Positions 1 to 36,359 of a stretch of DNA of 64,000 nucleotides are shown here, one piece after another (positions within the stretch are counted from its first letter, which is position 1; each line of letters opens with the position of its first letter). The stretch spans positions 70,287-134,286 of the IMG/VR virus record IMGVR_UViG_3300042286_000208. One strand, given 5' to 3'. Made by a program: the position numbers and the translations under genes. The stretch is from a virus. Taxonomy: Duplodnaviria > Heunggongvirae > Uroviricota > Caudoviricetes. The notes under the pieces are model-generated. The model ran no database searches. It was not told where the DNA came from and saw only the letters and a list, made by a program, of their open reading frames with translations.

Positions 1-740
1 TTACTGAAGAAGGGGCTAATAACTTTTCACTTAACGAAGATGTTGAGATTGTATCTGTTACTAACTATGAGATCGATTATTCACCCGAGTATGAAAACGA
101 AGATGATGAAGATGGAGACTCTGTAGTAACTGAGTCAATTCACTTAACAGGATTATCTTCATCTGAAGACAAGTTCTCGGTTATAACTTATAAAACAAAG
201 GGCGAAACCAAAGAATATATACTTGATAATGATATTTATTTAGTACTCGATAGAGATATCGATATAGACTATAGTTTAGAAAACAATAAGTTTTTAGACT
301 TGTCTAATTATGAAGTTGTGGCTGCTTATTTTATTATACAAAACAATGAGTTAGCTACAGGTATGAAGAAAATTCTAGCTGTTATAGACAATAATACTTT
401 TATAAAGCAGTTGAACGATAACATGGATATGACAGAGATTGAAAAAGCTTCAGCCTTACTTGAAAAATTTAACAGTTTGCTAATTTATTATAAACTAGAT
501 TTCATTAGAAGCTGGAATGTAGAAATGATATTATCAAACCTATTCTTTGACATAAACAAAGAGAATTTTGATTTCAGCGATACAACTAAAGCTATGGAAA
601 TCTACCCAGTGCCTAAAGCATTGAGAGAACACAGAAGTTTAGCCGTAAGCTTGAGTTACGAAAGACTTAAGGATCAGTTTTCAGATCCATATACTTTTAC
701 TAAAAACAGAAAGAGCAATATCGACAATTGGTTCAAATAA
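1..740 (+). CDS. hypothetical protein, 5'-truncated at window edge
   Basis: Open frame runs from position 3 with no stop into listed ORF 300-740; acidic N-terminal region. Confidence 0.5.
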   Translation, partial: TEEGANNFSLNEDVEIVSVTNYEIDYSPEYENEDDEDGDSVVTESIHLTGLSSSEDKFSVITYKTKGETKEYILDNDIYLVLDRDIDIDYSLENNKFLDLSNYEVVAAYFIIQNNELATGMKKILAVIDNNTFIKQLNDNMDMTEIEKASALLEKFNSLLIYYKLDFIRSWNVEMILSNLFFDINKENFDFSDTTKAMEIYPVPKALREHRSLAVSLSYERLKDQFSDPYTFTKNRKSNIDNWFK

Positions 741-810
741 TATTATATATTATAACGATGTTAAAAGAAGATATTATAATAAATTAAACGAAAGGAAGAA
801 TATTAATATT

Positions 811-1428
811 ATGAAAATTCAACAAAAAACTTATGACAGAATTTTAGTTAATCTACATGCTGTCGAAACTATGTTCAACAGAGACAAAACTGAATACGAT
901 AAAGAAGATTTCAAAGAAGTATCTCGAGAAATGGGTATCAGTGTTTCCAGAATCAAGAGAGCTTATGAAAACTTATCTGAATTTGGTTTTGTAAACCTCA
1001 GTCTAGGAGAACTATCTAATGCAGAGATTGTTCCAAACAAACCTACAGTACAAAGAAGAGTTACTAGAAGAAATGTAACCAATACTTACATCAAGCGTAA
1101 AGATGAAGGATATGTAGAAGCAGCTAAACATATTATTCACGACAGAATCTTTACTAATATGACAGTACAAGAAATCGCAAACAGATGGAATTGTTCTAAA
1201 GGTAGAGTTAATAGTTTGGTATCTGAAGTTGCAAGATATGGAGCTATCAAGCTACCTAAGTTCAGAAAACATATACTAATTGATATTAGTAAATATAGAG
1301 ATGTAAATGTAAGAGATACAATTAATGCAATTAAGCATGATATCGAATACAATCATTCTCTAGAGAAAAAACTGAGACACAAGTTGTTAACGAAGGTTCT
1401 TAGAGAGGCTTTATCATTTAATGCCTAA
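811..1428 (+). CDS. hypothetical protein with two HTH-like segments; possible transcription regulator
   Basis: Segments [13 protein letters not shown] and [18 protein letters not shown] resemble helix-turn-helix. Confidence 0.4.
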
Positions 1429-1654
1429 GGATACTAGTCTAACATTTGAAGGAGTAGTTACCGGAATCCAGAAAACGTTCTATCTAATAGAAATTCAGGA
1501 TGTTCCAGCCCTTGAAGGAAAGCCTATCAGGGGCACTCTCTCCGGAAAAATGAGAATGAATAAAATAAGAGTTATCGTTGGCGACAAGGTTTCTGTTGAA
1601 TTAGACCCTTATGATTTATCTAAGGGAAGAATTGTTTATAGATCAAAAAATTAA
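1421..1654 (+). CDS. infA: translation initiation factor IF-1
   Basis: [36 protein letters not shown] aligns nearly residue for residue with bacterial IF-1 ([36 protein letters not shown]). Confidence 0.85.
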
Positions 1655-1681
1655 AAAATAAAATTAGAAAAGAGGACAGTT

Positions 1682-2056
1682 ATGTTAAACAATGTATCAC
1701 TAGTCGGTAGACTGACAAAAGACCCAGATATTAGAGTATTGCAACAAAGTGGAAAAGTCGTGGCTTCTTTCACACTAGCAGTTCAGAGAACAAAAGATGA
1801 TGTTGATTTCATTCCTTGTGAAGCATGGAACAAAACAGCAGAGTCAGTGAGAGATTACGTAACCAAGGGATCCCTAATTGGCGTAGAAGGTTCAATTAAA
1901 GTTGATAGCTATGACACTGAAGAAGGTAGACGTACGTTTACTAAAGTCGTAGCAAATAAAGTTCATTTTATTGTTCTTAAATCTGCAACTGAGGGTGACA
2001 CTGATGGTGACGGACCTGAAAGATTTATGACAGACGAAGAACTAGCACAAAGATAA
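1682..2056 (+). CDS. ssb: single-stranded DNA-binding protein (OB fold)
   Basis: N-terminal MLNNVSLVGRLTKDPDIR...ASFTLAV...CEAWNKTAE typical SSB OB fold; acidic C-terminal tail DGDGPERFMTDEEL. Confidence 0.8.
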   Translation: MLNNVSLVGRLTKDPDIRVLQQSGKVVASFTLAVQRTKDDVDFIPCEAWNKTAESVRDYVTKGSLIGVEGSIKVDSYDTEEGRRTFTKVVANKVHFIVLKSATEGDTDGDGPERFMTDEELAQR

Positions 2057-2095
2057 ACATGAAATAATTGGGTGATGATTACGGGTGATATAGAG

Positions 2096-2114
2096 CAGCT
2101 GTCAAAAACAGCTG
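2096..2114 (+). terminator. hairpin cagctg-tcaaaaa-cagctg after ssb; weak terminator candidate
   Basis: Palindromic 6-bp stem directly downstream of the stop codon. Confidence 0.3.
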
Positions 2115-2245
2115 TCGCTATATTTCATAAAGTTAGTTGTTAAGATAGCTAACAAAATGAAAACCCAGCATCATTAATGTGAAGACAATTCTAACAGCCC
2201 ATTTGTTTTTTTAAAAAAAAAGAAAATATAATATATAAGGAGACG

Positions 2246-3079
2246 ATGATAAATATGAGACAAATAACTAGAGATCTTTACACTTCAGGACGAGTTTGGT
2301 TATCCTTATCACATAGTTTTTCACAAAACACAGGAGACGGAAATTCATTTGATTTAGTTAAAGTTAACGGGGATTTTGTGACATTTAATGCAGGAGCATT
2401 ATTTGTTTTAAGTCTTTGGGGAGCAGGAAAAAAGACTCCCGATAAGTTTTATATACCAGAGTATAAAATTGAAGAATTTAGAATGATATTATCCGCTTTA
2501 AATGAACTTAAGGAAGATGAAAGATATGTCAGAGACGGCGAGCTAACTGAAGCCGGGAAACCGTCTAATCTGTATTATAGATTGGCATTAAATAATAAAA
2601 AATATATCGATTTATACTTTGTAGAAAATGACTATAACGGTGATAAATCAATAAACATCGCTATCGAAATGGCTTCGGATTCAGGTAACACTGTATACGC
2701 TATGTATGATTCAAATGTAGTCGATTTGATTGATGTAATACCAAGACCAGCTGAAATTGTCAGATATAAACAATCTGCTGCCGAATTGTTTTATTTAGAA
2801 AACTTTGTAATGGGTGGCTCACAACCTCAACAAACCACAAGTAAATCAGGTAGCGGTAAATATACATCTAAGAAAACAGCTCCCAGAACAGTTAATAAAG
2901 TTGATAGAACTAGTATGAGCAAAGAGACTGTATCTTATGTAGTTGATACTCCTAGTGAAGAAAAAACACTGGAGCCGATAAATAATGAAACAGTTCAAGA
3001 AGATAGTATACAAAAAGAAGAGACAAGTAATACAAATCAAAGTGGATATGATTATAGTAACTTACTAGAAGATGAATAA
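2246..3079 (+). CDS. hypothetical protein
   Basis: 277-aa ORF, RBS aaggaga upstream; S/T/E-rich C-terminal tail. Confidence 0.5.
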   Translation: MINMRQITRDLYTSGRVWLSLSHSFSQNTGDGNSFDLVKVNGDFVTFNAGALFVLSLWGAGKKTPDKFYIPEYKIEEFRMILSALNELKEDERYVRDGELTEAGKPSNLYYRLALNNKKYIDLYFVENDYNGDKSINIAIEMASDSGNTVYAMYDSNVVDLIDVIPRPAEIVRYKQSAAELFYLENFVMGGSQPQQTTSKSGSGKYTSKKTAPRTVNKVDRTSMSKETVSYVVDTPSEEKTLEPINNETVQEDSIQKEETSNTNQSGYDYSNLLEDE

Positions 3080-3092
3080 TGAGAACTAAAAT

Positions 3093-3323
3093 ATGATTGA
3101 ATTTTATTTAAGTCTCTCATTATTTGCACAAATATATTTCGGTTTGTTTATATTTTTAATTGTATCTATATTTATCCTGATGTATATAGATGATGTATAC
3201 GGGATAGAAAACAATACAATAATGACCATACTTGGATTTATGCAATTGATTCTTTTAATTGCATATTTCCCTGTATCGGCATTTGTATTTGCTGTTCTAC
3301 TAAGCATATTTGGAGAACAATAA
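3093..3323 (+). CDS. small membrane protein (two predicted TM helices)
   Basis: Highly hydrophobic 76-aa ORF. Confidence 0.4.
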   Translation: MIEFYLSLSLFAQIYFGLFIFLIVSIFILMYIDDVYGIENNTIMTILGFMQLILLIAYFPVSAFVFAVLLSIFGEQ

Positions 3324-3344
3324 AACAGAAAGAAGGTGACTATT

Positions 3345-4067
3345 ATGTTAGAAGACAAAGATAAAGTAATATCAAATGATCTTTCTGATACTGAAGATGA
3401 TTGGAATGATGATGACTATGGTATGGAGTATGAGGATCTGAGTGCTGAAGAAGCAAACATGTTATCAGAAAAAATGCTAGAGGAATCAATAAAAATTAGA
3501 GAATCAATAGTATATAATGAGACTTCGGAAGAAGACACGGTTAATTATATTGAGCTTAGATCTCCAGCAGACGAAGATGAATCTCCTTTAAAGAGAAAAG
3601 TCAAAGAGCTGGTCAATAAGGGAAAATATGAAAGAAAGACATTTATTGATTATTTAGATGGTGACAGTGAGCAAGCTAGAAAAATGATCAACACATATCC
3701 GAAGAAAAAAGACTTCAAGATGGAAGAGTTCATCATGTGGATAAACTTTCTTGATTATGATATTAAAGTAATTAAAGACAGAAATAGATATGAACTCGGT
3801 GAATTAAGACAGACAGACGGTGATGATAAAATAGTTTCTTTCGAAAATAATGAAAGTTTTGTTCCGATAAAACAACTACTAGTAGAACTAATCAATTCGT
3901 CTAACCTAAAGATTTCGAATATCAAATTCTTTTATAGTGAGAAGCCATCAAATGCTTACAATATTATTGAGCGTTTTAAGAAAAACAATACAATGACAAC
4001 AGATACTTTCGCATTGTGGTTGACACTAATCGGATATACAATAAAATTAGTTAAGAGGGAATCTTAA
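3345..4067 (+). CDS. hypothetical acidic protein
   Basis: ORF with RBS agaaggtga 8 nt before ATG at 3345. Confidence 0.5.
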   Translation: MLEDKDKVISNDLSDTEDDWNDDDYGMEYEDLSAEEANMLSEKMLEESIKIRESIVYNETSEEDTVNYIELRSPADEDESPLKRKVKELVNKGKYERKTFIDYLDGDSEQARKMINTYPKKKDFKMEEFIMWINFLDYDIKVIKDRNRYELGELRQTDGDDKIVSFENNESFVPIKQLLVELINSSNLKISNIKFFYSEKPSNAYNIIERFKKNNTMTTDTFALWLTLIGYTIKLVKRES

Positions 4068-4744
4068 TGGTAACCTTAACTAAAAAAGAAAGAAGTACAG
4101 AACTAAATGAACTAAAGAGAGTTCTTATAGATTTTAAGTCGCTGGTCGAAGAAGATAGTTTTATCATCTACAAAAACAGCGGCTTAATATTCTATATATT
4201 TGATCAAAACGGATTTACTAAAATCATAAAAACTTCAAATTTTCTAAAGATTGAAGACTTTCTTGATAATGATGAATACGTTGATGTAAAATACAGTTTG
4301 TTAAAACAAACAGCGGATCTAAAAAAAGCAGAAGTAACTGAAATTTTCTATGATAGTGACACTTATTCAGTCCAAACAAATATAGATGAAGTCGTTGATC
4401 TTTTACTTATTAAAAAAAAGAAAGATTCTGATAATTTGTTGAAAAATATTATATACAGTACATCTCAAGAAAAATTATTAGAGAATTTTATAGAAGCTAA
4501 TTATAGAGAAAAGGAACAAATCCTGGTATCTACCATCGACAATAAAGTATATCCATATAAAATAACATTTTCAGACGATATCAATTTCAAATTAAAGATT
4601 GAAAACCCTGAGAGTAAATACTATATGAGAACCTTAAATGATGGAGCTTTTATACAAGTAATTACAATAAGTAAATACAAAGAAATATATCACGCCCAAA
4701 CAATTTTGTTTGTTTTTAACTACTTAAACAAAAAAGAGGTGTAG
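4067..4744 (+). CDS. hypothetical protein
   Basis: 225-aa ORF; start overlaps upstream stop (taATGg). Confidence 0.5.
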   Translation: MVTLTKKERSTELNELKRVLIDFKSLVEEDSFIIYKNSGLIFYIFDQNGFTKIIKTSNFLKIEDFLDNDEYVDVKYSLLKQTADLKKAEVTEIFYDSDTYSVQTNIDEVVDLLLIKKKKDSDNLLKNIIYSTSQEKLLENFIEANYREKEQILVSTIDNKVYPYKITFSDDINFKLKIENPESKYYMRTLNDGAFIQVITISKYKEIYHAQTILFVFNYLNKKEV

Positions 4745-4745
4745 T

Positions 4746-5279
4746 ATGAAATTAGTAATGGATACACAAGTTCGATTAACAGAATTCAAGACACCCTTAA
4801 AAAAGAAAATCTTTATCGAATCACTAAAGACAAAAAACAATTATATAGAACTAAATGATAAAACACTATTTATATGGGATTATTTAGGGGTATTGGATAA
4901 CGAAAGGGTGTTTGATTCATTCTGTCAAATAGACAACATTACTATATTATTGGACACCGAGACACAAATATTTGAAGCATATAGAGATGGTGTAAAAATT
5001 GACCACGTTATATTTAATGATATCATGAAGTGGATAAAAATAAAACATGATAATGATAAAAGAAGACTACTGAGAAAAATGAAAAAATTCAGAGAGGATT
5101 TTCTTGATCATAAATTAAAATATACGTATTATAGAGGTATATTCAGTGATAGATTTTCAGTATTCATGAAGGGCAAGGAGCTTCTTTTACCTGCTTGAAA
5201 TAAAGATGATGATATAACTCTTCTTGGAATGGAAGAGAATTTCAGTTTCTTTTTAAAATTATGTAAACTTGTTTTATAA
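4746..5279 (+). CDS. hypothetical protein (contains one in-frame TGA at 5196)
   Basis: Listed ORF 4746-5198 continues in frame through TGA to TAA at 5277-5279. Confidence 0.45.
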
Positions 5280-5292
5280 ATTTTATTATATT

Positions 5293-5322
5293 AAGAACAT
5301 ATATTTACTATGTTCTTTTTTT
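5293..5322 (+). terminator. rho-independent terminator
   Basis: Stem aagaacat/atgttctt with 9-nt loop followed by T6. Confidence 0.6.
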
Positions 5323-5335
5323 CCTTCATGTCCTT

Positions 5336-5351
5336 TGAATAATTAATTATA
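5336..5351 (+). promoter_or_regulatory. conserved motif TGAATAATTAATTATA (promoter class 1), copy 1
   Basis: Exact 16-mer present 6 times in the window, always intergenic and upstream of a gene; here 22 nt before ATG 5374. Confidence 0.6.
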
Positions 5352-5373
5352 TTAATGTGAGGAGGTAACAGCC

Positions 5374-6120
5374 ATGCCAACTATACACAAATGCCCTCTT
5401 TGTAGTTATTCATTCAAAGAAAAGACTAAGCTTTATGACCATATAAATTTTGAACATGGTGACGAATTACAAGGTTTATCTCCAGCACACCTATATTTCA
5501 ATTATAGAAATAGAGCAAGATATTCATTGTATAATATGTTTGGTAAATCTGTTGTTTCCAATAAACCCACTTTATTTGATGAGGTTACAGAAACATATCA
5601 AAGATTTGCTGATCAAGCAGATAAAGACCTAAATACAAAGATATTTGAAGCAAGAATGATGAAAGTTTATGGCAAGAAAAGATTAACAGACGATATTGAG
5701 AAACAAAGAGAAATGTTACACAATAGGTCAATCGCAGGAAAGTATATGTTTACAGATGGTGGTGAAGTTCCTTATATAGGATCATATGAAAGAAGATTTT
5801 TGGAACATCTTGATTTAGACTTACATATAAGTAGTAACGATGTGTTAGCAGACCCATTACAAATGGTCGTCAACTATGACGATAAAGGTGTTAAAAGACA
5901 ACATTTACCTGACTTTTACATCATACCTATGGAATGTATAATAAATATAAAAAACGACTCTAAGCCAAGAAGAGACCTAATTGAAAGAGAGTTCGCACAA
6001 GATAAAGCTATAGTAAACACCTTATTAAAAGGTAAAGGAAAAAATAGAAAGTATTTAAAAATAGTAGAAAATAATTTTAAAGAATTTGATAAGCTATTTT
6101 ATAAGATGAAGTCTGAATAG
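5374..6120 (+). CDS. C2H2 zinc-finger protein with possible PD-(D/E)XK nuclease-like C-terminal region
   Basis: N-terminal CPLCSYSF...HINFEH zinc finger; C-terminal LPDFYIIPMECIINIKND resembles restriction-endonuclease-fold motif. Confidence 0.4.
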   Translation: MPTIHKCPLCSYSFKEKTKLYDHINFEHGDELQGLSPAHLYFNYRNRARYSLYNMFGKSVVSNKPTLFDEVTETYQRFADQADKDLNTKIFEARMMKVYGKKRLTDDIEKQREMLHNRSIAGKYMFTDGGEVPYIGSYERRFLEHLDLDLHISSNDVLADPLQMVVNYDDKGVKRQHLPDFYIIPMECIINIKNDSKPRRDLIEREFAQDKAIVNTLLKGKGKNRKYLKIVENNFKEFDKLFYKMKSE

Positions 6121-6130
6121 GATTAAACAC

Positions 6131-6165
6131 GATGAAGTTTTAAAGCTTCATCTTTCTATCTTATT
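6131..6165 (+). terminator. terminator-like hairpin gatgaag...cttcatc followed by T-rich tract
   Basis: Inverted repeat immediately after stop of 5374-6120. Confidence 0.4.
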
Positions 6166-6225
6166 TTATATATTATATTAGTGTAAATGCAAACAAATCT
6201 ATATAAATAATAAGGAGAGTAAATT

Positions 6226-6501
6226 ATGGCACAAACTAAATTTGAACCAATAACCAAAGAAATTTCATTTGAACATAAATGTTCTAGATGTAATTTCACT
6301 AATCATACCACATATAATTGGCCAGTTAAAGTATATGAGAGACAGGGATATAAGTTTGATACTTTTTGTGTCGAGTGTGGTAGTCCTTATACATATACTT
6401 ACATTGATAAGATTGACGTAGAAGTAAAAGTAGATGAAGACATTCCTGAAGAACAAAAGGAAGATGAACTAAATGAAAAAGAAAATGAGGAGGATCAGTA
6501 A
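6226..6501 (+). CDS. hypothetical zinc-ribbon protein
   Basis: CSRCNF...CVECGSP cysteine pairs; acidic tail. Confidence 0.45.
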   Translation: MAQTKFEPITKEISFEHKCSRCNFTNHTTYNWPVKVYERQGYKFDTFCVECGSPYTYTYIDKIDVEVKVDEDIPEEQKEDELNEKENEEDQ

Positions 6502-6502
6502 T

Positions 6503-6721
6503 ATGACAAATGAAAGAATGAAAAGACTTAATGAAATGAGCTTAGATGAACTCAGAAAAGAATCAGATGAAGTTTACAGCGCGATACAGAATGAAAAAAT
6601 ATGGATGTTTGGATCAGCTGGAGACTCTGATACAGAGATAATGCATTCAAACAATGTCGATAAACTAAGAGAAGAGTCAAGATATATTTTTGATCTAATC
6701 GAAAAAAGAAAAGGAGAATAG
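6503..6721 (+). CDS. hypothetical small protein
   Basis: ATG 6503 preceded by RBS gaggagg; listed ORF 6473 overlaps the upstream gene. Confidence 0.45.
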   Translation: MTNERMKRLNEMSLDELRKESDEVYSAIQNEKIWMFGSAGDSDTEIMHSNNVDKLREESRYIFDLIEKRKGE

Positions 6722-6730
6722 TGAACTTAT

Positions 6731-9382
6731 ATGAAAATAACAAAACTTTATTTAAAGAATTTCAGTAGAGTTAAATCAGCTTTGGGTGTTGATGAAGTGA
6801 CTATAGATTTGACATCGGCTCAAAGCTTATTTCTATTCCTTAAAGGAGGAAATGGCTCGGGTAAGTCAACTCTTTTAAATCAAATGCATCCTTGGAGAGA
6901 CTCTTATGATGGGAACGGATCACAAACTTATGATGAAGCCGTAAAAGAAGTAACAATTCATCACGAAAATGGTGAATATTTAATCAGACATCAATATGGT
7001 AAAGTATCTAAAACATTTGTTTATAAAAATGGAGATCTTTTAAATTCTAATGGTAATACTAGAGCAGCAGAGGATCTTATAAATAACGAATTAGGATATA
7101 CGCCAGAATTCTTAGAACTATCAAGAATATCATCAAGTATGTCAGGATTTCTAGACAAAAAATCAACAGAGAGAAAAAAATTTATTACATCTTTAATGCC
7201 TTCTATTGATTTCTATATAAATGCTTTCGATAAAGTAAAAGCAAGAATTCTTGAAGAAAATAAAAAACTAAGATCTATTGAGGCAGAGATTGCAAAATTA
7301 GATTCATTTAGTGAAGAAGACTTAACGTTACAAAAAGAAAATGTTACTAAAACAAACAAATCAATAGAGGAACTGTCTAATAAAATAGCAGTGGCTAATG
7401 CGAAGCTAGACGAAATGCAAAAAAACCTAAAAGAATTAGTATTTGTATCCGACTTGGATATAAATAAACAAAGTGAAAAAATAAATTCTTTCGGTGAAAG
7501 TCTAGTTAAATTTATTGATGTTTATGGCAAGAAATCCATAGCATTAGCAAAAGAAGAACTTGATTTAGTTAAAGAAACTCTAATTAAAACAAGAGTAAAT
7601 ATCACAAACCTAGAATCCAAATTAAAATCAACAAACGAAAAAATAGGGTCCATTAATAACTCTATTGCTGAAGATGAAACATTCTTATCTAAGTTAAGTT
7701 CAGTTGATATAAAATCTATAGAAGACAGTATTAGTAAATATGAAAACATTATAAATTCTATAGATGTAGAGGATACGTATTATAAATATGTATTAAATAA
7801 AGAAGTTACAACAACAGAGTTAATGGGGTTGGAAAACTTTATACAATACACTGTAAATACTAAGAGTATATTAGGTAAACTGTATAAGGAGATATCTTCA
7901 ATTGGTATTATCAATATTCAAAACAAAGAGACAGAGCTTAAAAACAAACTTATTCCTCTTGGAACAGAGATAAAAGCACTTGAGAAAAGCATAAACGAAG
8001 ACTCCCTACATTATAATGAGTTTATGAAATCACAACACGGAAACAAAAAACATTGTGATGATCCAAACTGTCCTTATGAAAAAGAAGTCCAAGAATATGA
8101 AAAGTTAGGGTCTGTTATTGAACAAAATAATTTAAAATTAAGAGATCTCAACAAACAATTAGAGGATTTAAAAGATGAGATATCTGATGTCTCTTTAACT
8201 AAATCAAAAGCTGAAGAGTGGCTAACACTAAAAAGAAAATATTCAACAAATACTTTTGAAATATTTACAAAACACTATGATTTTTACGAGAGTGATGACT
8301 TAATTTCCGATTATAAGAAATTTTACTCAGATATAACAAATGCTATTGAAGATTCATCCCTTCTAATAACATCAACCAAGAGCTTAGCTGATGCTAAAAA
8401 AAGCTTAGACGAATCCAAAGATAGAATATCCTTGGTAGATAATATAAATACAAAGATAGCAAATCAAAAGGAAGAATTAGAGACTTTAAAAGGCGATGTT
8501 ATAACATTAAAATTTGATATTGAACAAGATAAAACAAAAGAAACAGAAACAGAAAAAGCTGTTCAGATGTATAATGATTTTATTGCAGCTAAAGAAGGTT
8601 TAAAGTTAGCCATTGAAGAAAAAACTAAAATGGAAGAAGATCAAAAGAAATGGAACGATATTTCAGAGGAAATCAAAAGAATGGGTGACGAAATTTCAGA
8701 AATGAGAACTAGAAAATCTAAAGAAGAGTCTGATTTATCGACATATTCAAACAATGTTAAACAACTAGAAAGACTTAAAATTAATAAAGAAATTTTAGAC
8801 GGAAACCTAGAGACAATTAGAAATAACTTGAATACATATTCACCAATAAATAACGCTTTGGATCCAAAGAAAGGTATTCCTGTTGTATTTCAAAGAGTTT
8901 ATTTAAAACAAACGGCGTTTCTTGTAAACAAACTTCTTAGAGTTGCTTACGGTGAAAAATTTGAAATTAGTTTTGAATTAACTGATAATGATTTTTTCAT
9001 TAGAGTTGTTGATAGTGAAGGAAATGTTCGTGATGATGCAAGATCTCTATCGGATGGTGAAAAATCAGTTGTTGGTTTAAGCTTAAGTCTTGCTTTAATT
9101 GAACAAACAGGAAATCGAGACAAGATACTTTATCTTGATGAAGCAGATGGTGTATTAGACAGCAAGAACAGAAGATCTTTCATTAATATTCTTGAAAATC
9201 AATTAGTTCTTCTTGGTATTGAACAGTGTATTATTATTTCTCATAATGATTCATTTAAAGATACTGAGGCTGATGTAATTTTATTAAAAGACGAAGATGC
9301 CGATGAAAGTCATATTGAACAAACAAAAGCATTTTTAGAAAACAAAAAAGTGATTTTTGATTACAAGAAATTGCTAGAATAA
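6731..9382 (+). CDS. sbcC: SbcC/Rad50-family ATPase (T4 gp46-like)
   Basis: Walker A GGNGSGKST, long coiled-coil middle with zinc-hook-like CDDPNCP, signature LSDGEKS, Walker B ILYLDEAD, H-loop IIISHND. Confidence 0.8.
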   Translation: MKITKLYLKNFSRVKSALGVDEVTIDLTSAQSLFLFLKGGNGSGKSTLLNQMHPWRDSYDGNGSQTYDEAVKEVTIHHENGEYLIRHQYGKVSKTFVYKNGDLLNSNGNTRAAEDLINNELGYTPEFLELSRISSSMSGFLDKKSTERKKFITSLMPSIDFYINAFDKVKARILEENKKLRSIEAEIAKLDSFSEEDLTLQKENVTKTNKSIEELSNKIAVANAKLDEMQKNLKELVFVSDLDINKQSEKINSFGESLVKFIDVYGKKSIALAKEELDLVKETLIKTRVNITNLESKLKSTNEKIGSINNSIAEDETFLSKLSSVDIKSIEDSISKYENIINSIDVEDTYYKYVLNKEVTTTELMGLENFIQYTVNTKSILGKLYKEISSIGIINIQNKETELKNKLIPLGTEIKALEKSINEDSLHYNEFMKSQHGNKKHCDDPNCPYEKEVQEYEKLGSVIEQNNLKLRDLNKQLEDLKDEISDVSLTKSKAEEWLTLKRKYSTNTFEIFTKHYDFYESDDLISDYKKFYSDITNAIEDSSLLITSTKSLADAKKSLDESKDRISLVDNINTKIANQKEELETLKGDVITLKFDIEQDKTKETETEKAVQMYNDFIAAKEGLKLAIEEKTKMEEDQKKWNDISEEIKRMGDEISEMRTRKSKEESDLSTYSNNVKQLERLKINKEILDGNLETIRNNLNTYSPINNALDPKKGIPVVFQRVYLKQTAFLVNKLLRVAYGEKFEISFELTDNDFFIRVVDSEGNVRDDARSLSDGEKSVVGLSLSLALIEQTGNRDKILYLDEADGVLDSKNRRSFINILENQLVLLGIEQCIIISHNDSFKDTEADVILLKDEDADESHIEQTKAFLENKKVIFDYKKLLE

Positions 9383-9393
9383 AAAGGTATTAT

Positions 9394-9430
9394 AAAGACA
9401 GGCTTTAAATAAAGCCCGTCTTTATACTTA
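9394..9430 (+). terminator. rho-independent terminator
   Basis: 13 of 14 bp stem aaagacaggcttta/taaagcccgtcttt followed by T-rich tract. Confidence 0.55.
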
Positions 9431-9450
9431 TCAGAAGGAGAAATAAAAAT

Positions 9451-10260
9451 ATGTTTATTACAAAAGAAAATGTAAATAAAGTAATAGAGAAGCTAAAATT
9501 AGATGATTTTATTGTCTATGTAGATATGAAATTCTTTTTAAAAGATATATGTAATCCGTACCATACATCTCCTCTAAGATATATGGAAAAGATTGATCTA
9601 CATAAATATTTTATTGACCTACATAGTATAATGTCTAACTTTTTTAAGAAGCCAGTTTATTTTGTATATTCAACGAAAAAAATAAATATCGAGGGCATGC
9701 CGTCATATAAAGAAGTTTATTACAGTAAATATTTTGATGATGATGAAAGAGCTGAGATTTTAGAAAATATAAAAGATGTTTTTGAGACTCTAAAGAATTC
9801 CTCGATAACATCTGGAGATGAAAAATTCATAGATAGTTCTGATACTTCTATAAGCTTAAAAGACGAATTTGGCTTTATAAAGGGAAATCATGGTGATAGA
9901 ACTGCTGTGGTTATTACCAGAGATAAAATATTCAATGCTTATTCAGATATTGTGACAATTGATCCATATGATTTAACAATAGGAGAATTAAAACCAAAGA
10001 GCATTCCTGATTACTATAAGATTGTTTTATCCATAGCAGGTTACCCAGAATATTCAATTCCTGGAATCCCTGGGATTAAAGAAAAAACAATTTCAAAAAT
10101 ATTGTCAAAGATCGTTGACAAAGGAGAATATATATATTATAATACTACCAGTAGAAGTCAACCTGTGTTCCCTATAACTTACGAGTTATTATCTGAAGTC
10201 TCTGATATATCAAGAGAAGAATACAACATGATTTTAATAAACTGGAAGTTTTTAAACTAA
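9451..10260 (+). CDS. 5'-3' exonuclease / flap endonuclease (RNase H-like, H3TH)
   Basis: SIPGIPGIKEKTISKILSKI helix-hairpin-helix typical of FEN/Pol I 5' exonuclease; VVITRDKI resembles the vS.DkDl block. Confidence 0.5.
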   Translation: MFITKENVNKVIEKLKLDDFIVYVDMKFFLKDICNPYHTSPLRYMEKIDLHKYFIDLHSIMSNFFKKPVYFVYSTKKINIEGMPSYKEVYYSKYFDDDERAEILENIKDVFETLKNSSITSGDEKFIDSSDTSISLKDEFGFIKGNHGDRTAVVITRDKIFNAYSDIVTIDPYDLTIGELKPKSIPDYYKIVLSIAGYPEYSIPGIPGIKEKTISKILSKIVDKGEYIYYNTTSRSQPVFPITYELLSEVSDISREEYNMILINWKFLN

Positions 10261-10269
10261 GGAGAATTT

Positions 10270-10890
10270 ATGATAAATAAAGATAAGAATTGTAAAAGTT
10301 GTGCCCACCTAGACGGAGCACATTGTAAAAAATGAGACATTGATATTCCGAACATCCATTCTTTTTCATGCTCCAATTACAGTTTTAAAAAGGAGTTTGA
10401 GAACAAAGGTAAGGTCATATTTGACAGACCAACCCAAGAATTAAGATATGAATACGACTCTTTTAGAGTAGCAGATATGGAGTATCCAAACTATATTACA
10501 ATGGAGTTATATACAGAGGGATCTGATTGGTTTAGATTTAATTACTACTATGTTTTAAAAGATACAGGTCTTAGAGATGGTCATGTCTTTAATGTCATTG
10601 GTAATTTATCTGTGGGAAGAATGATTCGAAATAAAAAAATTGGATCGGGTACATATGTCGATAAACCATATTGGTCTTGGAAATTTGATGATGAGAATAT
10701 AAAAATATCAGACGGATATCTTAAATCAAGAGGTGATGAAGACAATGAGTTCTCTATTAAGATTGAAAAATTGAAAACCATCATAGAGTTGGTTGAAAGA
10801 GTAGAAAAAAGCGGAAATCCGTTGAATGTACCAGACAACGTTAAAGTTCAGTTTATTAGAAGTGAAACATATAACGATCTAGTAAAATAA
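10270..10890 (+). CDS. hypothetical protein (in-frame TGA at 10333)
   Basis: ATG 10270 after RBS ggaga; frame continues through TGA into listed ORF 10477-10890; N-terminal CKSC...HC cysteines. Confidence 0.45.
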
Positions 10891-10904
10891 AAAGGAGAAC
10901 GACC

Positions 10905-11273
10905 ATGAATAAAGAAAAGTTTCTAAAAGAGTTAAAAGATCAATTGATGCAAGGCGATCAATCTGGTATCTATCTAACAGATAAAGCAAAAGAGCTAATC
11001 GAATATGCAGATAATTGTCTATTGTCGGCAAAAGAGCTTAAAAACTTCGATAGATTTATTGAAGAAAATTCAAATTTGACTTTGGGTCAACTGAGACAAA
11101 AAGAAATTGAATTATACATTAAGAATTTTAAAAATATTAGCAGTTCAGAGGAAATAGATCTTGATGAAGACGAAACCGTTGATGTGGTATTTGATTTTCC
11201 AGGACAGTTTGAGACTTATACTATAACCCCTACTGTTGCTGCAATTCTTATAGATATCATTAATAAAGAATAA
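10905..11273 (+). CDS. hypothetical protein
   Basis: 122-aa ORF with RBS aaggaga. Confidence 0.45.
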   Translation: MNKEKFLKELKDQLMQGDQSGIYLTDKAKELIEYADNCLLSAKELKNFDRFIEENSNLTLGQLRQKEIELYIKNFKNISSSEEIDLDEDETVDVVFDFPGQFETYTITPTVAAILIDIINKE

Positions 11274-11610
11274 ATGGGAGAAGATATTATGAATGAAGAA
11301 AGATTGAAGGTATTGTTATACAATGCTCTGGTGTGTTTAGAAGAAAACGGATATGATATAGAACAACTAAAAGAATCCATTGGAATTAAATCTGATGAAT
11401 ATGAAGAGATTATGGATATTTAACTATGAAATATTATTATGGAAATAGTTATAAAGACGCACTCAGAAACGGTCCTGTTGAAATTAAAACCACAGATGCA
11501 CTGAGATCTTATGAAGAAAATTACAGTGTGGTAATACCTGCAGATGAGATTGATCTCGATGAAGATGATGAATCAGAAGAAATTGATTAAAAATAAAAGG
11601 AGGTCTAATT

Positions 11611-13146
11611 TTGAAATTAGTTTATTACAATAAAGACAAAAGTGAATTTCACAAAAAGAACGGTGAGTTCCAAGGAAACGAAATAACAAAAGAAAAAGTA
11701 TTCGGTAGAGTTGATAATGATTTAGCCTCGCTAGAGTTTACTGATATTAAAAGAAAATCTTTTCAAAAGGGTTCGATATTAGATCCTAACATTTTTGGAA
11801 ACTTCATGATGACCTCCAACTATAGTTGTAAATGCGGTATGACAACTGGATGGGTCAATGAAGGATTAAGCTGCAACCACTGCAACACAACAGTATTACC
11901 AGTGGGTACGAATTTAGAACAATGGGGGTTTATAGATTTAGATCCTTTTCATATTATATCTTATCCCAAATACTTTATATTAGAAAAGATAATTGGAATA
12001 AATGTTCTAAAAAGTATAATTAGAAAAAGTGATTTAATTAACTTAGATGGACAGGCAGTTGAACAAGATGACGATGGAACTTTTAAGAGGTTAAATGACG
12101 CATACCTTCAAACAAAGTTAAAAAATCATAATTATAAAAATCTAGGGTTGAAGAATTTCTATATTTACTATGAAGATATCATTAACTTTTATGCTAGAAA
12201 ATATATATCGAAACAATTTAACGTTGAGCTACCTGATGAATGGTGTTTGTATGATTTCCTATCCGATCCTAAAAATGAAGGAAAAGACATGAATATGTTT
12301 AAATCAGTGGCAACAAAAGAAGACGTATTCATTGATAAAATAATCGTAGCACCAATATCATTAAGACCTATACATAGAACAAAAGATGGTATACAACAGG
12401 ATGAGATGGGAAACCTATATACAAAGATCGTTGCTGAAAAAGTAATTCTTGACGGACACGACCATGTTTTAGATTCTTATATTGAAGAAGCTTTACTGAC
12501 TATCCAATTAAAATATTTTGAATTAGCAAACTATATTGTTAAAGACAAATTGGCTGGAAAAGAAGGTTACATCAGAGATAAGATTAATGGTACTAAACTT
12601 AACTATACAGCTCGTTTAATCTTGTCACCCTCAGATGTATCCAAATATAATGTCGGGGACTGTATACTGCCTTATTTTGTTGCTGTAAACTTTTTAAAAT
12701 ATGAGATCATCAGTATATTATCTTCAATTAAGAACATCAACTACCAAAAAGCATTAGATTATTATACTTTACATCAATATGATTTCAATCAAGAAATATA
12801 TTTGATTATGAAGAAGATTATATCTGATAATGAGGTTGGTGTATTATTAAACCGTGCTCCAACATTGAACTACGGTTCAGTAGTTTATTTAAAATTTGCT
12901 GATATAAAAGACATTTATGAAGATCAAACCTTAGCTGTACATCCATTGACATTCTCATTATATAACGGTGATGTTGATGGAGACGTTGTTACTATCGTTT
13001 TACTTCATGATAAAGAGTTGATCGAAAAAATGAAAAATTCTTTAGGTGTAGAACAAATGTTAACAGATCCCAATAATGGTAAATTGTCTAAAAAACTAAA
13101 TATTAGCAAAGACATTTTATATGGTCTGTGGAAACTTATAGGGTAG
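11611..13146 (+). CDS. multisubunit RNAP beta-prime subunit, N-terminal fragment
   Basis: Zinc-finger CKCG...CNHC; LLNRAPTL matches beta-prime NRAPTLH; YNGDVDGDVV is the catalytic NADFDGD motif; ends at equivalent of beta-prime LGLYY; TTG start with RBS aaaggagg. Confidence 0.8.
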   Translation: MKLVYYNKDKSEFHKKNGEFQGNEITKEKVFGRVDNDLASLEFTDIKRKSFQKGSILDPNIFGNFMMTSNYSCKCGMTTGWVNEGLSCNHCNTTVLPVGTNLEQWGFIDLDPFHIISYPKYFILEKIIGINVLKSIIRKSDLINLDGQAVEQDDDGTFKRLNDAYLQTKLKNHNYKNLGLKNFYIYYEDIINFYARKYISKQFNVELPDEWCLYDFLSDPKNEGKDMNMFKSVATKEDVFIDKIIVAPISLRPIHRTKDGIQQDEMGNLYTKIVAEKVILDGHDHVLDSYIEEALLTIQLKYFELANYIVKDKLAGKEGYIRDKINGTKLNYTARLILSPSDVSKYNVGDCILPYFVAVNFLKYEIISILSSIKNINYQKALDYYTLHQYDFNQEIYLIMKKIISDNEVGVLLNRAPTLNYGSVVYLKFADIKDIYEDQTLAVHPLTFSLYNGDVDGDVVTIVLLHDKELIEKMKNSLGVEQMLTDPNNGKLSKKLNISKDILYGLWKLIG

Positions 13147-13155
13147 GTGAATAGA

Positions 13156-13836
13156 ATGAATCAAACACGAGAAGAATTTATTAAAAATATTAAGCTTGGG
13201 GTCCCTGGAGACAAAGATGGAACTCCTTTAGATTTTAATGTATTACAAAAATCAGTCGCAAATAGCTTTGATAAAAGGGAGAGTATTTTGGTACTCTCTC
13301 CAAGACAATCAGGAAGAACTTTGTCTATAGTATTGAATATCTTGTATGATGTATTTGTTGATGACTGCATTGATACTATAATTGTATCCGATACAATTTG
13401 GCAAACGAATTCGATACTCGATAGAGTATTTAGTTACTTAATCGGACTTAATTCGTTCATGACTGATAAATTAGTTAAATCATTTAGAAAAAAAGTTAAG
13501 GTAAAATCAGCGAACTATGTCGCTAAATTAGACAAAGTAGTTAGATCTAATAAACGATTAGTGATCATGGAAGCTGCACATATCACAGAGAGATATAGAC
13601 TGGATAAATTGGTCGATGGATGGGATTGTTTAATTGTAGAGACCACCGCAACATCTATGACAAAATCCTTTAACAGTTTATTTTTCAAAACCAGGCTAAT
13701 GGATTTAAATGTAATGAACCTTAATATTATAAGATATAAATGGGACGAACTATTCGATGAAAAGTGGTTTAATTTACAAAAAAAACTAGTACCTGAGTCC
13801 ATATTTAAAAGAGAAATATTGCTTGAGTGGGACTAA
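13156..13836 (+). CDS. hypothetical P-loop-like protein
   Basis: Walker A-like SPRQSGRT and Walker B-like LVIMEAAH; same frame as upstream gene but separated by TAG. Confidence 0.3.
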   Translation: MNQTREEFIKNIKLGVPGDKDGTPLDFNVLQKSVANSFDKRESILVLSPRQSGRTLSIVLNILYDVFVDDCIDTIIVSDTIWQTNSILDRVFSYLIGLNSFMTDKLVKSFRKKVKVKSANYVAKLDKVVRSNKRLVIMEAAHITERYRLDKLVDGWDCLIVETTATSMTKSFNSLFFKTRLMDLNVMNLNIIRYKWDELFDEKWFNLQKKLVPESIFKREILLEWD

Positions 13837-13850
13837 GAGGTGATAAGATT

Positions 13851-14228
13851 ATGCAAATAAAAGATATAAAAACTAACACCGTTATTGTTAACGAAGACAT
13901 GGAAGTGAAAGGTAATCTTGAAGTTGTAGGCGATTTAAAAGTTGGTGGTGATATCATCGTAAGTGGTACATTAACAACTGTACATCACGAAACTATAGTC
14001 AAAGAAGATATTAAACAGAAAAAAGTATTAATTTGTACAAAGTGTGGTGGAAATAAATTCACTCCGACTGGACGAGGCATACAACTTACAGTATATATAG
14101 AGAATGGCTCAGCAGGAGGATCTAATGAATATAGATGTTCCAAGTGTGGCAATACTGAATGGGTGTCTTATCCGCCTACATATAATAAAGTCGAACCACG
14201 AGAAATAGAATTACCAGAAGATAAATAG
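13851..14228 (+). CDS. zinc-ribbon protein with N-terminal short beta-repeats
   Basis: Two CxxC pairs (CTKCGG, CSKCGN); repeats VKGNLEVVGDLKVGGDIIV; sits between RNAP subunit genes. Confidence 0.4.
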   Translation: MQIKDIKTNTVIVNEDMEVKGNLEVVGDLKVGGDIIVSGTLTTVHHETIVKEDIKQKKVLICTKCGGNKFTPTGRGIQLTVYIENGSAGGSNEYRCSKCGNTEWVSYPPTYNKVEPREIELPEDK

Positions 14229-14241
14229 GAGGAAGATCTAA

Positions 14242-16821: not shown

Positions 16822-17175
16822 GTGTTTAAATTTAAAAGATTAAATATAAATCGTATAAAAGAAGATTTAGAAAAGATAGAGATATTGAACAATAAAGAAG
16901 ATAAAACGGAAGAGGATTTACTTGAGGGTCATAGAATATTTAGAGTTTTTTCTAATTTTATTAAATTAAATTATGGAAAGTTTAAAAGATTTAAAAAAGA
17001 AGATAGAAACATGTATGTTAATATTTATGACTGAACAGAAAGACAGAAAAGCGTAGTATCTTCAATAAGAAAAATTGGTTTTAGAGAAGTGATCGATGGC
17101 GATGAAGAAGAATCCGATTGGATCATTTACGAAGCCTGGCTTCTTGGTTATTTAATTGTAAAATATAAAAAATAA
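16822..17175 (+). CDS. hypothetical basic protein (in-frame TGA at 17032)
   Basis: Listed ORF 16822-17034 continues through TGA to TAA 17173-17175. Confidence 0.4.
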
Positions 17176-17187
17176 GGAGATCATACA

Positions 17188-18632: not shown

Positions 18633-18642
18633 GTAAAACAGA

Positions 18643-22669: not shown

Positions 22670-22682
22670 ATAAGGCGGTATT

Positions 22683-23462: not shown

Positions 23463-23486
23463 AAATATACCGAGGAGGTGTTGATT

Positions 23487-25100: not shown

Positions 25101-25134
25101 AATTATATATTATTTAAAATGTATTCTAATAAAA

Positions 25135-25165
25135 ATAGACTAGTCGTTATAATACGGCTAGTCTA
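25135..25165 (+). terminator. hairpin tagactagtcg/cggctagtcta
   Basis: 10 of 11 bp inverted repeat downstream of stop. Confidence 0.4.
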
Positions 25166-25204
25166 TAAAACTTAAAAATAAAAAACGAGAGGAGCTACAC
25201 AATT

Positions 25205-25732
25205 TTGGATTTATTAAAAAATGAACAAATACCTAGTGGGTTATACACGCTTATTGACATTGACAGAACGAATTTAGGTGTCAAACCAATAGCAAAGATC
25301 AGAGAGATTTGCGAGGAAAACGAATATGATTGTGTTTTAGTCAATTCTAATGTTAGACCTGGTATTGTTAAACTCGAAGAGCGTATGGATGAAAGTAAAA
25401 GAAAATATCAAGAAGCCAAAAACGCGAAAAAGAATAAACAAAAAGAAATAAAATCTAAATCATATACAGTGGATAAACCATTAACCATCCAAGAAAATGA
25501 TTTAAACAGAAAAATGAACGAAGTAATAAATGCAGTTAGAAAGAATTATTCAGTAACTTTTACATTTAAAGCCATGGGAAGATATGCAGATCAACATCAC
25601 TGGAAAGATGTAGTGAAAAGATTTGATACATGTTATGATTATATTATGAGTCATGAAAACATAACTTCTCAAACAAGAAAAGAAAATGAAAATACTATTT
25701 ATGCTGTCTTTAGATATACAACAAAAAAATAA
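25205..25732 (+). CDS. infC: translation initiation factor IF-3
   Basis: N-domain IDIDRTNLGVKPIAKIREICEENEYDCVLVNSNVRPGIVKL ~ IF-3 [42 protein letters not shown]; C-domain KEIKSKS...TFTFKAMGRYADQHHW ~ KEIKFRP...TLRFRGREMAHQQ. Confidence 0.7.
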   Translation: MDLLKNEQIPSGLYTLIDIDRTNLGVKPIAKIREICEENEYDCVLVNSNVRPGIVKLEERMDESKRKYQEAKNAKKNKQKEIKSKSYTVDKPLTIQENDLNRKMNEVINAVRKNYSVTFTFKAMGRYADQHHWKDVVKRFDTCYDYIMSHENITSQTRKENENTIYAVFRYTTKK

Positions 25733-25748: not shown

Positions 25749-26474
25749 ATGGATGAATCAAATAAAAAGGGAACGTATTCATTTGGTATTGAAGTAAACG
25801 GAGACGAAAGAGTTCAATATCTAGAACCGAGTGAGGGACAAGATAAATTTAGAAACAGAATTTACATTAGTAAAGCAAAAACGATGGAAGATATTCTAAA
25901 AGAAGTAGATTCATTTTGTACAAAGTACTATAAGGCAAGTGAACATGGAGTTAGTGCAGATATGATAGATGTCTTCAAAGATTTCAATAAAGTGTATCAC
26001 GCATTAAGAAACCTAACGAAATCCGATGGAAGGAAAATAAGAGGTTTTGAAAAGATAGAAAAATATGGGGATGTTAATATTCCTAAAAGAGGGACCAACA
26101 AAAGTGCCGGTTACGATATCGAATCTATAGAAGATGTTGATATAGAACCAGGAACAACTAAAGTGGTTTTAACTGGATTAAAAGCATATATGATGGATGA
26201 TGAAGTTCTAAAATTATATATAAGATCATCTTTAGCAATAAAAAAAGGCTTGACTTTAGCAAACAACGTAGGTATAATAGATGCAGACTACTATAATAAT
26301 CTGTCTAATGAAGGACATATTATGGTGGCACTAACAAACCTCTCAGATTCAACAGTAACCATCAAAAAAGGTGATAGAGTAGCCCAGGGTATATTTGTTA
26401 AGTATCTAACAGCAGACGATGATCAAACTCTTTCAAGCGAGAGAATTGGTGGAATTGGTAGTACAAATATTTAA
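25749..26474 (+). CDS. dut: dUTP pyrophosphatase
   Basis: dUTPase motifs GYDIESIED, TGLKAYMM, IIDADYYN, C-terminal GGIGSTN; about 90-aa N-terminal extension. Confidence 0.7.
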   Translation: MDESNKKGTYSFGIEVNGDERVQYLEPSEGQDKFRNRIYISKAKTMEDILKEVDSFCTKYYKASEHGVSADMIDVFKDFNKVYHALRNLTKSDGRKIRGFEKIEKYGDVNIPKRGTNKSAGYDIESIEDVDIEPGTTKVVLTGLKAYMMDDEVLKLYIRSSLAIKKGLTLANNVGIIDADYYNNLSNEGHIMVALTNLSDSTVTIKKGDRVAQGIFVKYLTADDDQTLSSERIGGIGSTNI

Positions 26475-35651: not shown

Positions 35652-35672
35652 AGCCGTCACCTACCTATCTCT

Positions 35673-36328: not shown

Positions 36329-36359
36329 ACGGAAATTGCTGAAAGAGGGGTGACTTATC

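Follow-up and report, generated by a model that had tools for sequence, protein, structure and literature searches.

The locus described here raises the question why a phage, which depends on the ribosomes of its host, should carry translation initiation factors of its own, and where these would act. It is situated on a stretch of 64,000 nucleotides (positions 70,287 to 134,286 of the IMG/VR record IMGVR_UViG_3300042286_000208), which as a whole is called the window in the following and to which all coordinates refer unless another contig is named. A preliminary description had proposed that the window encodes the initiation factors IF-1 and IF-3, and homologues of both are present at the positions given, with profile and structural matches in agreement:

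1421..1654, + strand: IF-1 homologue (infA-like), 77 amino acids (aa), ATG start, TAA stop
25205..25732, + strand: IF-3 homologue (infC-like), 175 aa, TTG start, TAA stop

As a whole, these genes are best explained as orthologue-like factors of an uncultured phage lineage related to Bacillus phage AR9, which are maintained by selection, expressed early, and active on host 30S subunits, with an IF-3 of reduced stringency; we give this reading a probability of about 0.6.

Identity and fold of the two factors

By its sequence and its predicted fold, the open reading frame (ORF) at 1421-1654 is a true member of the IF-1 family. It scores 69.8 bits on the NCBIfam infA equivalog TIGR00008 (cut-off 61.15) and 54.2 bits on Pfam PF01176 (cut-off 30.2), and its residues 1-76 align with solved IF-1 chains (E 2e-14). 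The AlphaFold model contains strands at residues 7-16, 21-25, 35-40, 56-61, and 68-75 and a helix at 42-46, i.e., a five-stranded oligonucleotide/oligosaccharide-binding (OB) barrel, the fold described for IF-1 along with a length of around 71 residues and a short 3-10 helix (PMC4611024). Compared with the PDB by Foldseek, the model finds bacterial IF-1 in all of its best 12 matches, with template modelling (TM) scores of 0.85-0.89 among the best and root-mean-square deviations (rmsd) of 1.4-1.7; against ribosome-bound E. coli IF-1 the values are 0.89 and 1.5.

The phage protein has in common with bacterial IF-1 (E. coli, 1AH9; T. thermophilus 30S-IF1 complex, 1HR0) the length class, the OB fold with its 3-10 helix, the G-K-M-R motif, and the C-terminal K-G-R-I-x-[YF]-R, whereas it differs by a loop insertion, by an altered loop sequence, and by an identity of at most 51% to the cellular IF-1s found. 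The insertion in the beta2-beta3 loop comprises 5 residues in the window protein and 4-5 residues throughout the clade of related phage proteins, and forms a short turn. The altered loop, LPNTMFR in E. coli (L17-R23) and IQKTFYL in the phage, is common to the whole clade; we take it to be the loop that contacts helix 44 (h44) in the 30S-IF1 crystal structure. The C-terminal half had been called nearly identical to bacterial IF-1; the alignment indeed covers the full length and the similarity is high, whereas the identity to E. coli IF-1 over residues 41-75 amounts to around 77%. The G-K-M-R motif is invariant, as are R70 and R74 in 28 aligned sequences. The latter corresponds to E. coli Arg69, which is essential for 30S binding, and the region of Arg64/65 likewise belongs to the C-terminal binding arginines (PMC4611024).

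The ORF at 25205-25732 is, as judged from sequence and model, a complete but strongly diverged IF-3, with an N-terminal domain (NTD) at around residues 1-60, a helical Lys-rich linker at around 61-83, and a C-terminal domain (CTD) at around 84-172. Pfam IF3_N (PF05198) is matched with 37.6 bits (gathering threshold 26.9), and the match to TIGR00168 (infC) extends over profile positions 7-157 of 170. The proposed alignment across both domains stands, the CTD being recognised by its fold and not by Pfam IF3_C. The AlphaFold model built from 15 clade sequences (pLDDT 83) exhibits the NTD, a helical linker (helix 63-76, then an extended stretch), and a CTD of beta-alpha-beta-alpha-beta-beta topology. 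The top 25 Foldseek matches in the PDB are all IF3, for the full length as well as for the NTD or the CTD alone (NTD against 1tif: TM 0.75; CTD against 1tig: TM 0.82, rmsd 1.9; CTD against 6vrj: TM 0.80).

The two domains with matching folds and the Lys-rich helical linker are shared with the bacterial IF-3s of G. stearothermophilus (1TIF/1TIG), T. thermophilus (5LMN), and E. coli (8JSG), whereas the identity to the solved proteins is only around 17-29% and the end of the NTD carries a 3-residue insertion. Bacterial infC is typically, though not universally, part of an infC-rpmI-rplT operon and starts with a non-canonical AUU used in autoregulation, as in E. coli; the phage gene lacks the rpmI-rplT neighbours, being adjoined by phage genes instead, and starts with UUG.

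Retained and substituted residues of IF-3

For the mapping of IF-3 residues to E. coli numbering, HMMER and MAFFT alignments were used, in which 17 clade members were set against 134 other IF-3 representatives. The clade retains positions that are near-universal among these others, namely a basic residue at 66 (K), Y75, D106, K110, G132, and R133, and R99 and R129 are kept as basic residues (K in both cases). In the phage protein Y75 is Y68, with Y or F in all 17 clade members, and the position of K110 is K103; the K110L mutant of IF3 has lost 30S binding altogether (PMC7145577).

Fixed differences exist at three arginines which are tied to the proofreading of start codon and initiator tRNA. 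The equivalent of R131 is M, F, or L in 17 of 17 clade members, whereas R or K is found in 101 of the 134 others, such that the RFRGR motif reads K-A-[MFL]-G-R in the phage clade. At the equivalent of R168, the beta-hairpin arginine, all 17 possess N (R/K in 80/134 others), and at that of R25, 13 of the 17 possess T and three R or K (R in 87/134 others). Further changes with respect to bacterial IF-3 are Y70 to E/D, Y107 to L, R112 to N, and R116 to N. Since intermediate phage IF-3s keep K or R at 131, this change is derived within the phage clade.

In bacteria, R131 contacts the start codon, and R131P loosens the discrimination of start codons, initiator tRNA, and leaderless mRNAs (PMC11775629). 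In T. thermophilus IF3, Arg123 (R131) and Arg159 (R168) adjoin the codon and the anticodon stem-loop (PMC5037330). R25 contacts the elbow of the initiator tRNA and is invariant among the bacterial IF3s compared in the respective study, and its mutation raises initiation at AUU (PMC9723500). Because of the non-basic residues at R131, R168, and mostly R25, phage IF-3 would probably proofread less stringently; normal 30S binding combined with such relaxed proofreading is supported, not proven, by this pattern of substitutions. The start-codon-contacting arginine has likewise been lost in Mycoplasma IF3s, which possess P, F, or Y at position 131 (PMC11775629), and in mitochondrial IF3 (RFRGR to KKGK). 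The phage protein differs from mitochondrial IF3 in having no terminal extensions, and the window phage differs from both systems in that its mRNAs have strong Shine-Dalgarno (SD) sites and mostly AUG starts.

Promoter-like motifs, leader hairpin, and gene strings

Both genes are preceded by a motif resembling the early promoter of AR9:

743-753 (to 760 with the G), + strand: early-promoter-like motif TTATATATTAT followed by 6 nt and G, upstream of the gene string containing IF-1
25103-25113 (to 25121 with the G), + strand: early-promoter-like motif TTATATATTAT, upstream of IF-3
25136..25165, + strand: hairpin with 11-bp stem and 8-nt loop, between promoter motif and ribosome-binding site of IF-3
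25187..25194, + strand: SD sequence GAGAGGAG, 10 nt upstream of the IF-3 UUG start

The motif occurs in nine exact copies on the + strand, all of them intergenic, and seven of the nine exhibit the G (6 nt downstream, at +7) of the AT-rich consensus ...ATATATTAT-(6N)-G, which is known from AR9 only. There, the early promoter recognised by the virion RNA polymerase has been defined experimentally as AAATATATATTAT-(6N)-G(+1) (PMC5312081). The copy upstream of IF-3 is invariant in eight aligned homologous loci. As each gene sits behind such a motif, early transcription of both by a virion RNA polymerase is a reasonable inference from this likeness.

The hairpin in the leader of IF-3 is conserved as a structure: 97.7% of the cells of the alignment are paired, compared with 16-41% in slid controls, six of the 11 pairs exhibit compensatory changes, the fold z-score is -5.05, and the G-U pairs fit the + (mRNA) strand only. 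It could stabilise the 5' end of the mRNA, mark a site of processing, or act as an operator. An intrinsic terminator is disfavoured, as no U-tract follows on the + strand and the hairpin is situated 3' of the promoter motif. The start codon of IF-3 is UUG in all 10 loci examined, although synonymous sites have diverged to saturation. In the window, an in-frame ATT immediately precedes this TTG at a distance from the SD that would be ideal; it was considered as an AUU start and rejected, because this codon is not conserved (ACT, ACG, AAC, AAT, AAA, or ACA elsewhere).

Early expression would also suit inhibitory decoys, i.e., phage factors that occupy host 30S subunits and are defective in later steps (release upon 50S joining, interplay with IF2 and tRNA), such that they shut off the host or prevent subunit association. 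The substitution of tRNA- and codon-contacting positions (R25, R131, R168) with retention of the 30S-binding K110 fits such a function as well. However, the SD-led mRNAs of the phage itself depend on these very ribosomes, no sign of selectivity against host mRNAs is seen, and the linker length, Y75, and the G-R of RFRGR, all needed for normal IF3 dynamics, are conserved, so that we consider decoys quite unlikely.

The genes next to the two factors are the following:

811..1428, + strand: 205-aa protein with two helix-turn-helix (HTH) units resembling sigma-70 region 4 (Pfam Sigma70_r4, E 4.6e-9)
1682..2056, + strand: single-stranded DNA-binding protein (SSB) gene, directly 3' of IF-1 in the same gene string (Pfam SSB, E 8e-27)
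25749..26474, + strand: dUTPase with an N-terminal extension of around 100 residues, directly 3' of IF-3 (Pfam dUTPase, E 2e-20)

In contrast to bacterial infA, the IF-1 gene is thus located between the HTH gene and SSB in a string of phage genes. The stop of the HTH gene overlaps the start of IF-1 by 8 nt, which makes translational coupling probable. That the neighbours serve transcription and replication instead of translation, with IF-1 between a sigma-like HTH gene and SSB, might speak for other functions altogether, in which IF-1 would be an RNA chaperone or assist the phage RNA polymerase as antiterminator and the IF-3-like protein would have some other RNA-binding role, and the alterations in the h44-loop region of IF-1 and at several IF-3 arginines would be in line with this. 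Such moonlighting is nevertheless very unlikely, since the best-conserved parts are precisely the ribosome-binding signatures (GKMR...R70...R74 in IF-1; D106, K110, and G-R in IF-3) and the full two-domain architecture of IF-3 with its linker is retained.

Conservation in the phage lineage and origin

Clade members at 60-100% identity (18 IF-3 and around 17 IF-1 proteins) stem from independent metagenome assemblies of several projects. Wherever flanks exist, IF-1 is accompanied by a 643-aa gene, the 205-aa HTH gene, and SSB, and IF-3 is preceded by a gene of around 540 aa; the order HTH gene, IF-1, SSB is kept in all related loci (L004-L009 and L018-L025). Two of the contigs, L004 and L001, are 100% identical to the matching parts of the window (L004 to positions 1-11654). 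The pairwise ratio of nonsynonymous to synonymous substitution rates (dN/dS) ranges over 0.03-0.12 in IF-3 and 0.13-0.15 in IF-1, values of the order obtained for the neighbouring SSB and HTH genes; they are rough, as synonymous sites are near saturation. Both genes are intact, under strong purifying selection, and kept in the phage lineage.

Concerning relatives beyond the clade, tblastn with IF-3 gave no match at E <= 1e-3 in 50,697 phage records, a word-indexed search retrieved its own clade alone, a scan of IMG/VR for IF-3 gave no match, and a metagenome scan yielded two loci only. A profile search of 1.84 billion representatives found few intermediates and then cellular IF-3s from E around 1e-9 downward. 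The nearest named ones belong to the AT-rich Phytoplasma and Hepatincolaceae (E around 1e-9), a proximity that is probably an effect of composition. A distant phage IF-3 (P0139, E 5e-33) is encoded on contig L026, on which a T4-type prohead protease is found as well. It again adjoins a dUTPase, which on that contig (6741-7702) is placed directly before the IF-3 homologue and in the window directly after it; the recurrence of this neighbourhood suggests that IF-3 has been present in phages for long and was not captured recently. As to the question raised in the preliminary description whether the factors are host-derived, a recent host origin is rejected and no donor lineage can be named: the best cellular IF-1 reaches 51% identity, and cellular IF-3s are found by profile only, at E around 1e-9 or weaker.

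Among genomes, the IF-3 scan hit a single phage-like contig (L027, CAYYEN010000038.1), which is part of a metagenome-assembled genome (MAG) labelled uncultured Spirochaetaceae bacterium. This contig, which belongs to the lineage of the window phage, agrees with the window in its promoter motif, its hairpin, and an IF-3 with TTG start. As an indication of the host it is weak, and probably it reflects mis-binning instead. This contig might also be taken as a sign that the genes are bacterial contaminants, result from a chimeric assembly, or were taken from a host recently and have no adaptive role. Some IF matches among the phage records do appear to stem from contaminating host DNA (short 'phage' records of Listeria, Enterococcus, and Staphylococcus). 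An artefact or passenger origin of the window genes is, however, effectively refuted: in numerous independent assemblies of several projects these genes recur beside unchanged neighbours of phage type, no cellular homologue comes close, purifying selection is strong, and a phage-type promoter motif is situated upstream.

The source phage and its genome

The window derives from a jumbo phage of AR9/phiKZ type, with hallmark genes throughout; its GC content is around 30%, and nearly all genes are on the + strand. The phage genes include split multisubunit RNA polymerase beta/beta' genes, a split divergent PolB, a divergent DnaB, SbcC, SSB, dUTPase, and a prohead (head-maturation) protease. Phages of the AR9/phiKZ type possess virion and non-virion multisubunit RNA polymerases and AT-rich early promoters. 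The split beta/beta' genes and the early-promoter-like motif TTATATATTAT-(6N)-G before gene strings are shared with them, whereas the RNA polymerase beta of the window phage is only around 32% identical to that of its closest cultured relatives (Staphylococcus phages SA1/S6, Listeria phage LPJP1, Yersinia phage phiR1-37), and the window phage has a dUTPase, the IF genes, and sense TGA in some genes. AR9-like cultured phages gave no IF matches among the 50,697 phage records, and a megablast of 8 kb against the same records found no near-identical known phage.

Two sets of RNA polymerase genes exist in the window, which are listed here together with further features:

11611-16299, + strand: separate RNA polymerase beta'/beta-like ORFs, no TGA, UUG starts behind strong SD sites
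31500-35660, - strand: single RNA polymerase beta-like ORF, 1386 aa, 5 in-frame TGA
40403-42424 and 42424/42454-44427, + strand: family-B DNA polymerase divided between two adjacent ORFs, one for the exonuclease part and one for the divergent polymerase part
29646-29722, + strand: tRNA with anticodon CAT, the only tRNA of the window
53645-54304, + strand: guanylate-kinase-like protein, replication region
56336-57007, + strand: ThiF-family (E1-like adenylyltransferase) protein, replication region
62346-63533, + strand: reverse transcriptase (RVT_1, E 3e-20), at the window end

The 1386-aa ORF, matched continuously by PHROG profiles over residues 27-1374, is possibly the virion enzyme, expressed late. 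The split DNA polymerase has an early-promoter motif at 40250. The tRNA, the only RNA detected in an Rfam scan of the window, is preceded by an early-promoter-like motif at 29560 and, just 5', by a hairpin at around 29616-29638. Read from the sequence, it has a paired G1:C72 and C11:G24, by which it is presumably an elongator Met or a lysidine-type Ile tRNA; these features argue against a phage initiator tRNA (tRNA-fMet), which is therefore rejected. A search for the host by the exact tRNA pattern gave no match in 185,579 genomes. Near the reverse transcriptase, Rfam detected neither a group II intron nor a retron RNA. Pfam and PHROG scans of around 50 window ORFs found no further translation genes.

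TGA as a sense codon and the usage of start codons

In a subset of the phage genes of the window, TGA is, by all indications from the alignments, a sense codon for tryptophan. With TAA and TAG as the only stops, fragments merge into full-length genes, containing 142 TGG and 44 in-frame TGA codons, and the seven in-frame TGA positions that were checked all align with W or TGA in relatives, with conservation continuing downstream. The regions and genes concerned comprise:

4746-5279, 16822-17682, 18192-19746, 21281-23141, 23478-25100, 30176-35660 (- strand), 36336-39314, and others: regions with sense TGA
21281-22669: PIF1 helicase, merged with TGA as sense
22683-23141, + strand: 152-aa ORF (PHROG 335 'phosphatase', E 2e-31), 2 in-frame TGA, visible only with TGA as Trp
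23478-25100: 540-aa gene just 5' of IF-3, merged with TGA as sense
36336-39314: 992-aa ORF, 7 TGA versus 1 TGG
L004:4463-4777: ORF resembling the archaeo-eukaryotic type of peptidyl-tRNA hydrolase (PTH2), same genome, around 4 kb 5' of window position 1 and 5.5 kb 5' of IF-1

Annotated with the standard code, a dozen or more genes of the window are consequently misread, among them the one adjoining IF-3. The usage of TGA is bimodal: it is absent from most genes and commoner than TGG in a few. Both IF genes are compatible with the standard code, having no in-frame TGA, and the same holds for the other genes behind an early-promoter motif, among them the other RNA polymerase subunits, PolB, and DnaB; the TGA-bearing genes are probably late genes. 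Within the 64 kb, no UGA suppressor tRNA, tryptophanyl-tRNA synthetase, RF1, or other release factor was seen.

Phages of animal guts that are recoded from TGA to Trp (code 4) on standard-code hosts have been described, the recoding being concentrated in some genes (Borges et al., bioRxiv 10.1101/2021.08.26.457843). The window phage has in common with them in-frame TGA at Trp positions, replication and early genes compatible with the standard code, and a low GC content, and its bimodal TGA usage would fit the picture of a recoded phage on a standard-code host. A host that itself uses code 4 (Mollicutes), which would explain both TGA as Trp and the mycoplasma-like state of IF-3 position 131, is disfavoured, since at 30% GC TGA would then be expected everywhere.

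The start codons also have to be seen in this light. The preliminary description had stated that many genes use TTG or GTG, linking this to the phage factors. Among genes with a strong SD, there are 40 ATG, 4 GTG, and 3 TTG starts, which looks ordinary for a low-GC system of Gram-positive type; the apparent TTG and GTG starts are largely an artefact, because standard-code ORF finding splits genes at in-frame TGA and the fragments begin at the first TTG, GTG, or ATG. The strong AGGAGG-type ribosome-binding sites mentioned there are real, SD sites of AAGGAGG type being common in the window.

The coexistence of recoding and initiation factors permits a further explanation, in which suppression of UGA termination late in infection leads to read-through of host mRNAs with a UGA stop and traps ribosomes, and the additional IF-3 and IF-1, together with the PTH2-like hydrolase, help to split and recycle the ribosomes and to recycle peptidyl-tRNA. 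The sense TGA in a subset of genes and the PTH2-like ORF of the same genome accord with it; the latter has a single in-frame TGA, which immediately precedes a conserved Trp, and its Pfam match, taken from a precomputed table, is only 'weak'. A role in ribosome rescue has been suggested for IF3 and PTH2 of jumbo phages by Iyer et al. (PMC7824862), and the best phage matches of IF-1 in tblastn are Lak phages, which are reported to be recoded at stop codons (bioRxiv 10.1101/2021.08.26.457843). On the other hand, the connection is purely correlative and comprises two lineages, the IF genes look early whereas recoding is expected late, and neither a suppressor tRNA nor a release factor is seen in the 64 kb. 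Moreover, many jumbo phages with IF-3 (121Q, RaK2, Sharanji) are not known to be recoded. We therefore hold support of recycling or rescue to be unlikely as the function of the pair.

Comparison with other phage initiation factors

The supposition that phages rarely combine IF-1 and IF-3 is supported by the 50,697 phage records, of which 36 match IF-1 and 74 match IF-3, few of them in both sets; among the matches listed, those in both are LR756511, Sinorhizobium phage Phosso, and separate contigs of one Acinetobacter 'phage' assembly. IF1 and IF3 have been reported among the translation genes of huge phages, with a proposed interception of host translation (Al-Shayeb 2020, PMC7162821), IF3 is known from group 2.2 jumbo phages, for which the rescue role mentioned above was suggested (PMC7824862), and the IF-3 of phage Sharanji has been discussed (PMC11895373). 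Jumbo phages with IF-3 in the collection include 121Q, RaK2, and Sharanji. Despite the homology of the same two factors among these phages (121Q, RaK2, Sharanji, LR756511, Phosso) and the window phage, the IF-3 of the latter forms a separate, more divergent clade, and its carrier is AR9-like. Phage IF-1 and IF-3 are accordingly of a kind already known, and their pairing is rare, not new; new are the carrier lineage and the highly diverged IF-3 clade. To our knowledge, phage-borne initiation factors have been catalogued since 2020 and none has been characterised.

Proposed role

Judging from the conserved ribosome-binding residues and the modelled folds, the phage factors most likely act on host 30S subunits. 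In the reading preferred here, both genes would be transcribed early by the injected virion RNA polymerase, and the two proteins would occupy their canonical, neighbouring positions on the host 30S, with IF-1 on h44 in the A site and the IF-3 CTD at the P site. On the 30S subunit, IF1 offers points at which the IF3 CTD is anchored, and binding of the two factors is cooperative (PMC5037330), which gives a rationale for a phage possessing both. The phage factors might then supplement or replace those of the host, so that during takeover a pool of 30S subunits competent for initiation would stay at the disposal of the strong-SD phage mRNAs, and the phage IF-3 would probably inspect the codon-anticodon pair and the initiator tRNA less stringently than its host counterpart does.

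Several observations weigh against this reading. Concerning IF-3, the score of 51.2 bits on TIGR00168 lies under the equivalog cut-off of 60, the C-domain has no match to Pfam IF3_C (PF00707) by sequence, and the CTD residues R112, R116, R131, and R168 of E. coli are not basic in the phage; with several basic residues of this domain gone, the affinity for 30S or the function of the protein could differ substantially. In IF-1, it is the loop equivalent to E. coli L17-R23 that has changed (to IQKTFYL). The promoter assignment is drawn from likeness to AR9 only, and in the copy before IF-3 the first G follows 8 nt downstream, i.e., after 7 intervening nt instead of the 6 of the AR9 consensus. Finally, start-codon usage in the phage is ordinary, so that there is no obvious need for relaxed fidelity.

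A more far-reaching suggestion, which we regard as tentative and rather unlikely, is that the early, co-adapted pair, in whose IF-3 the three arginines inspecting start codon, anticodon stem, and tRNA elbow are lost, might constitute a phage-specific module of relaxed proofreading on host 30S subunits, which reprogrammes the choice of mRNAs or start sites or keeps ribosomes cycling after the switch of UGA to Trp. If true, such a module would tie the capture of initiation factors to stop-codon recoding.

The lineage is unusually tractable, as it possesses both of the factors that sit side by side on the 30S subunit, as their genes are apparently early, and as its IF-3 carries natural substitutions at precisely those positions for which data from E. 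coli and mycoplasmas predict a relaxed proofreading of start sites. If the pair alters initiation, it would be a compact case of a virus editing the initiation fidelity of its host and a source of orthogonal initiation factors.

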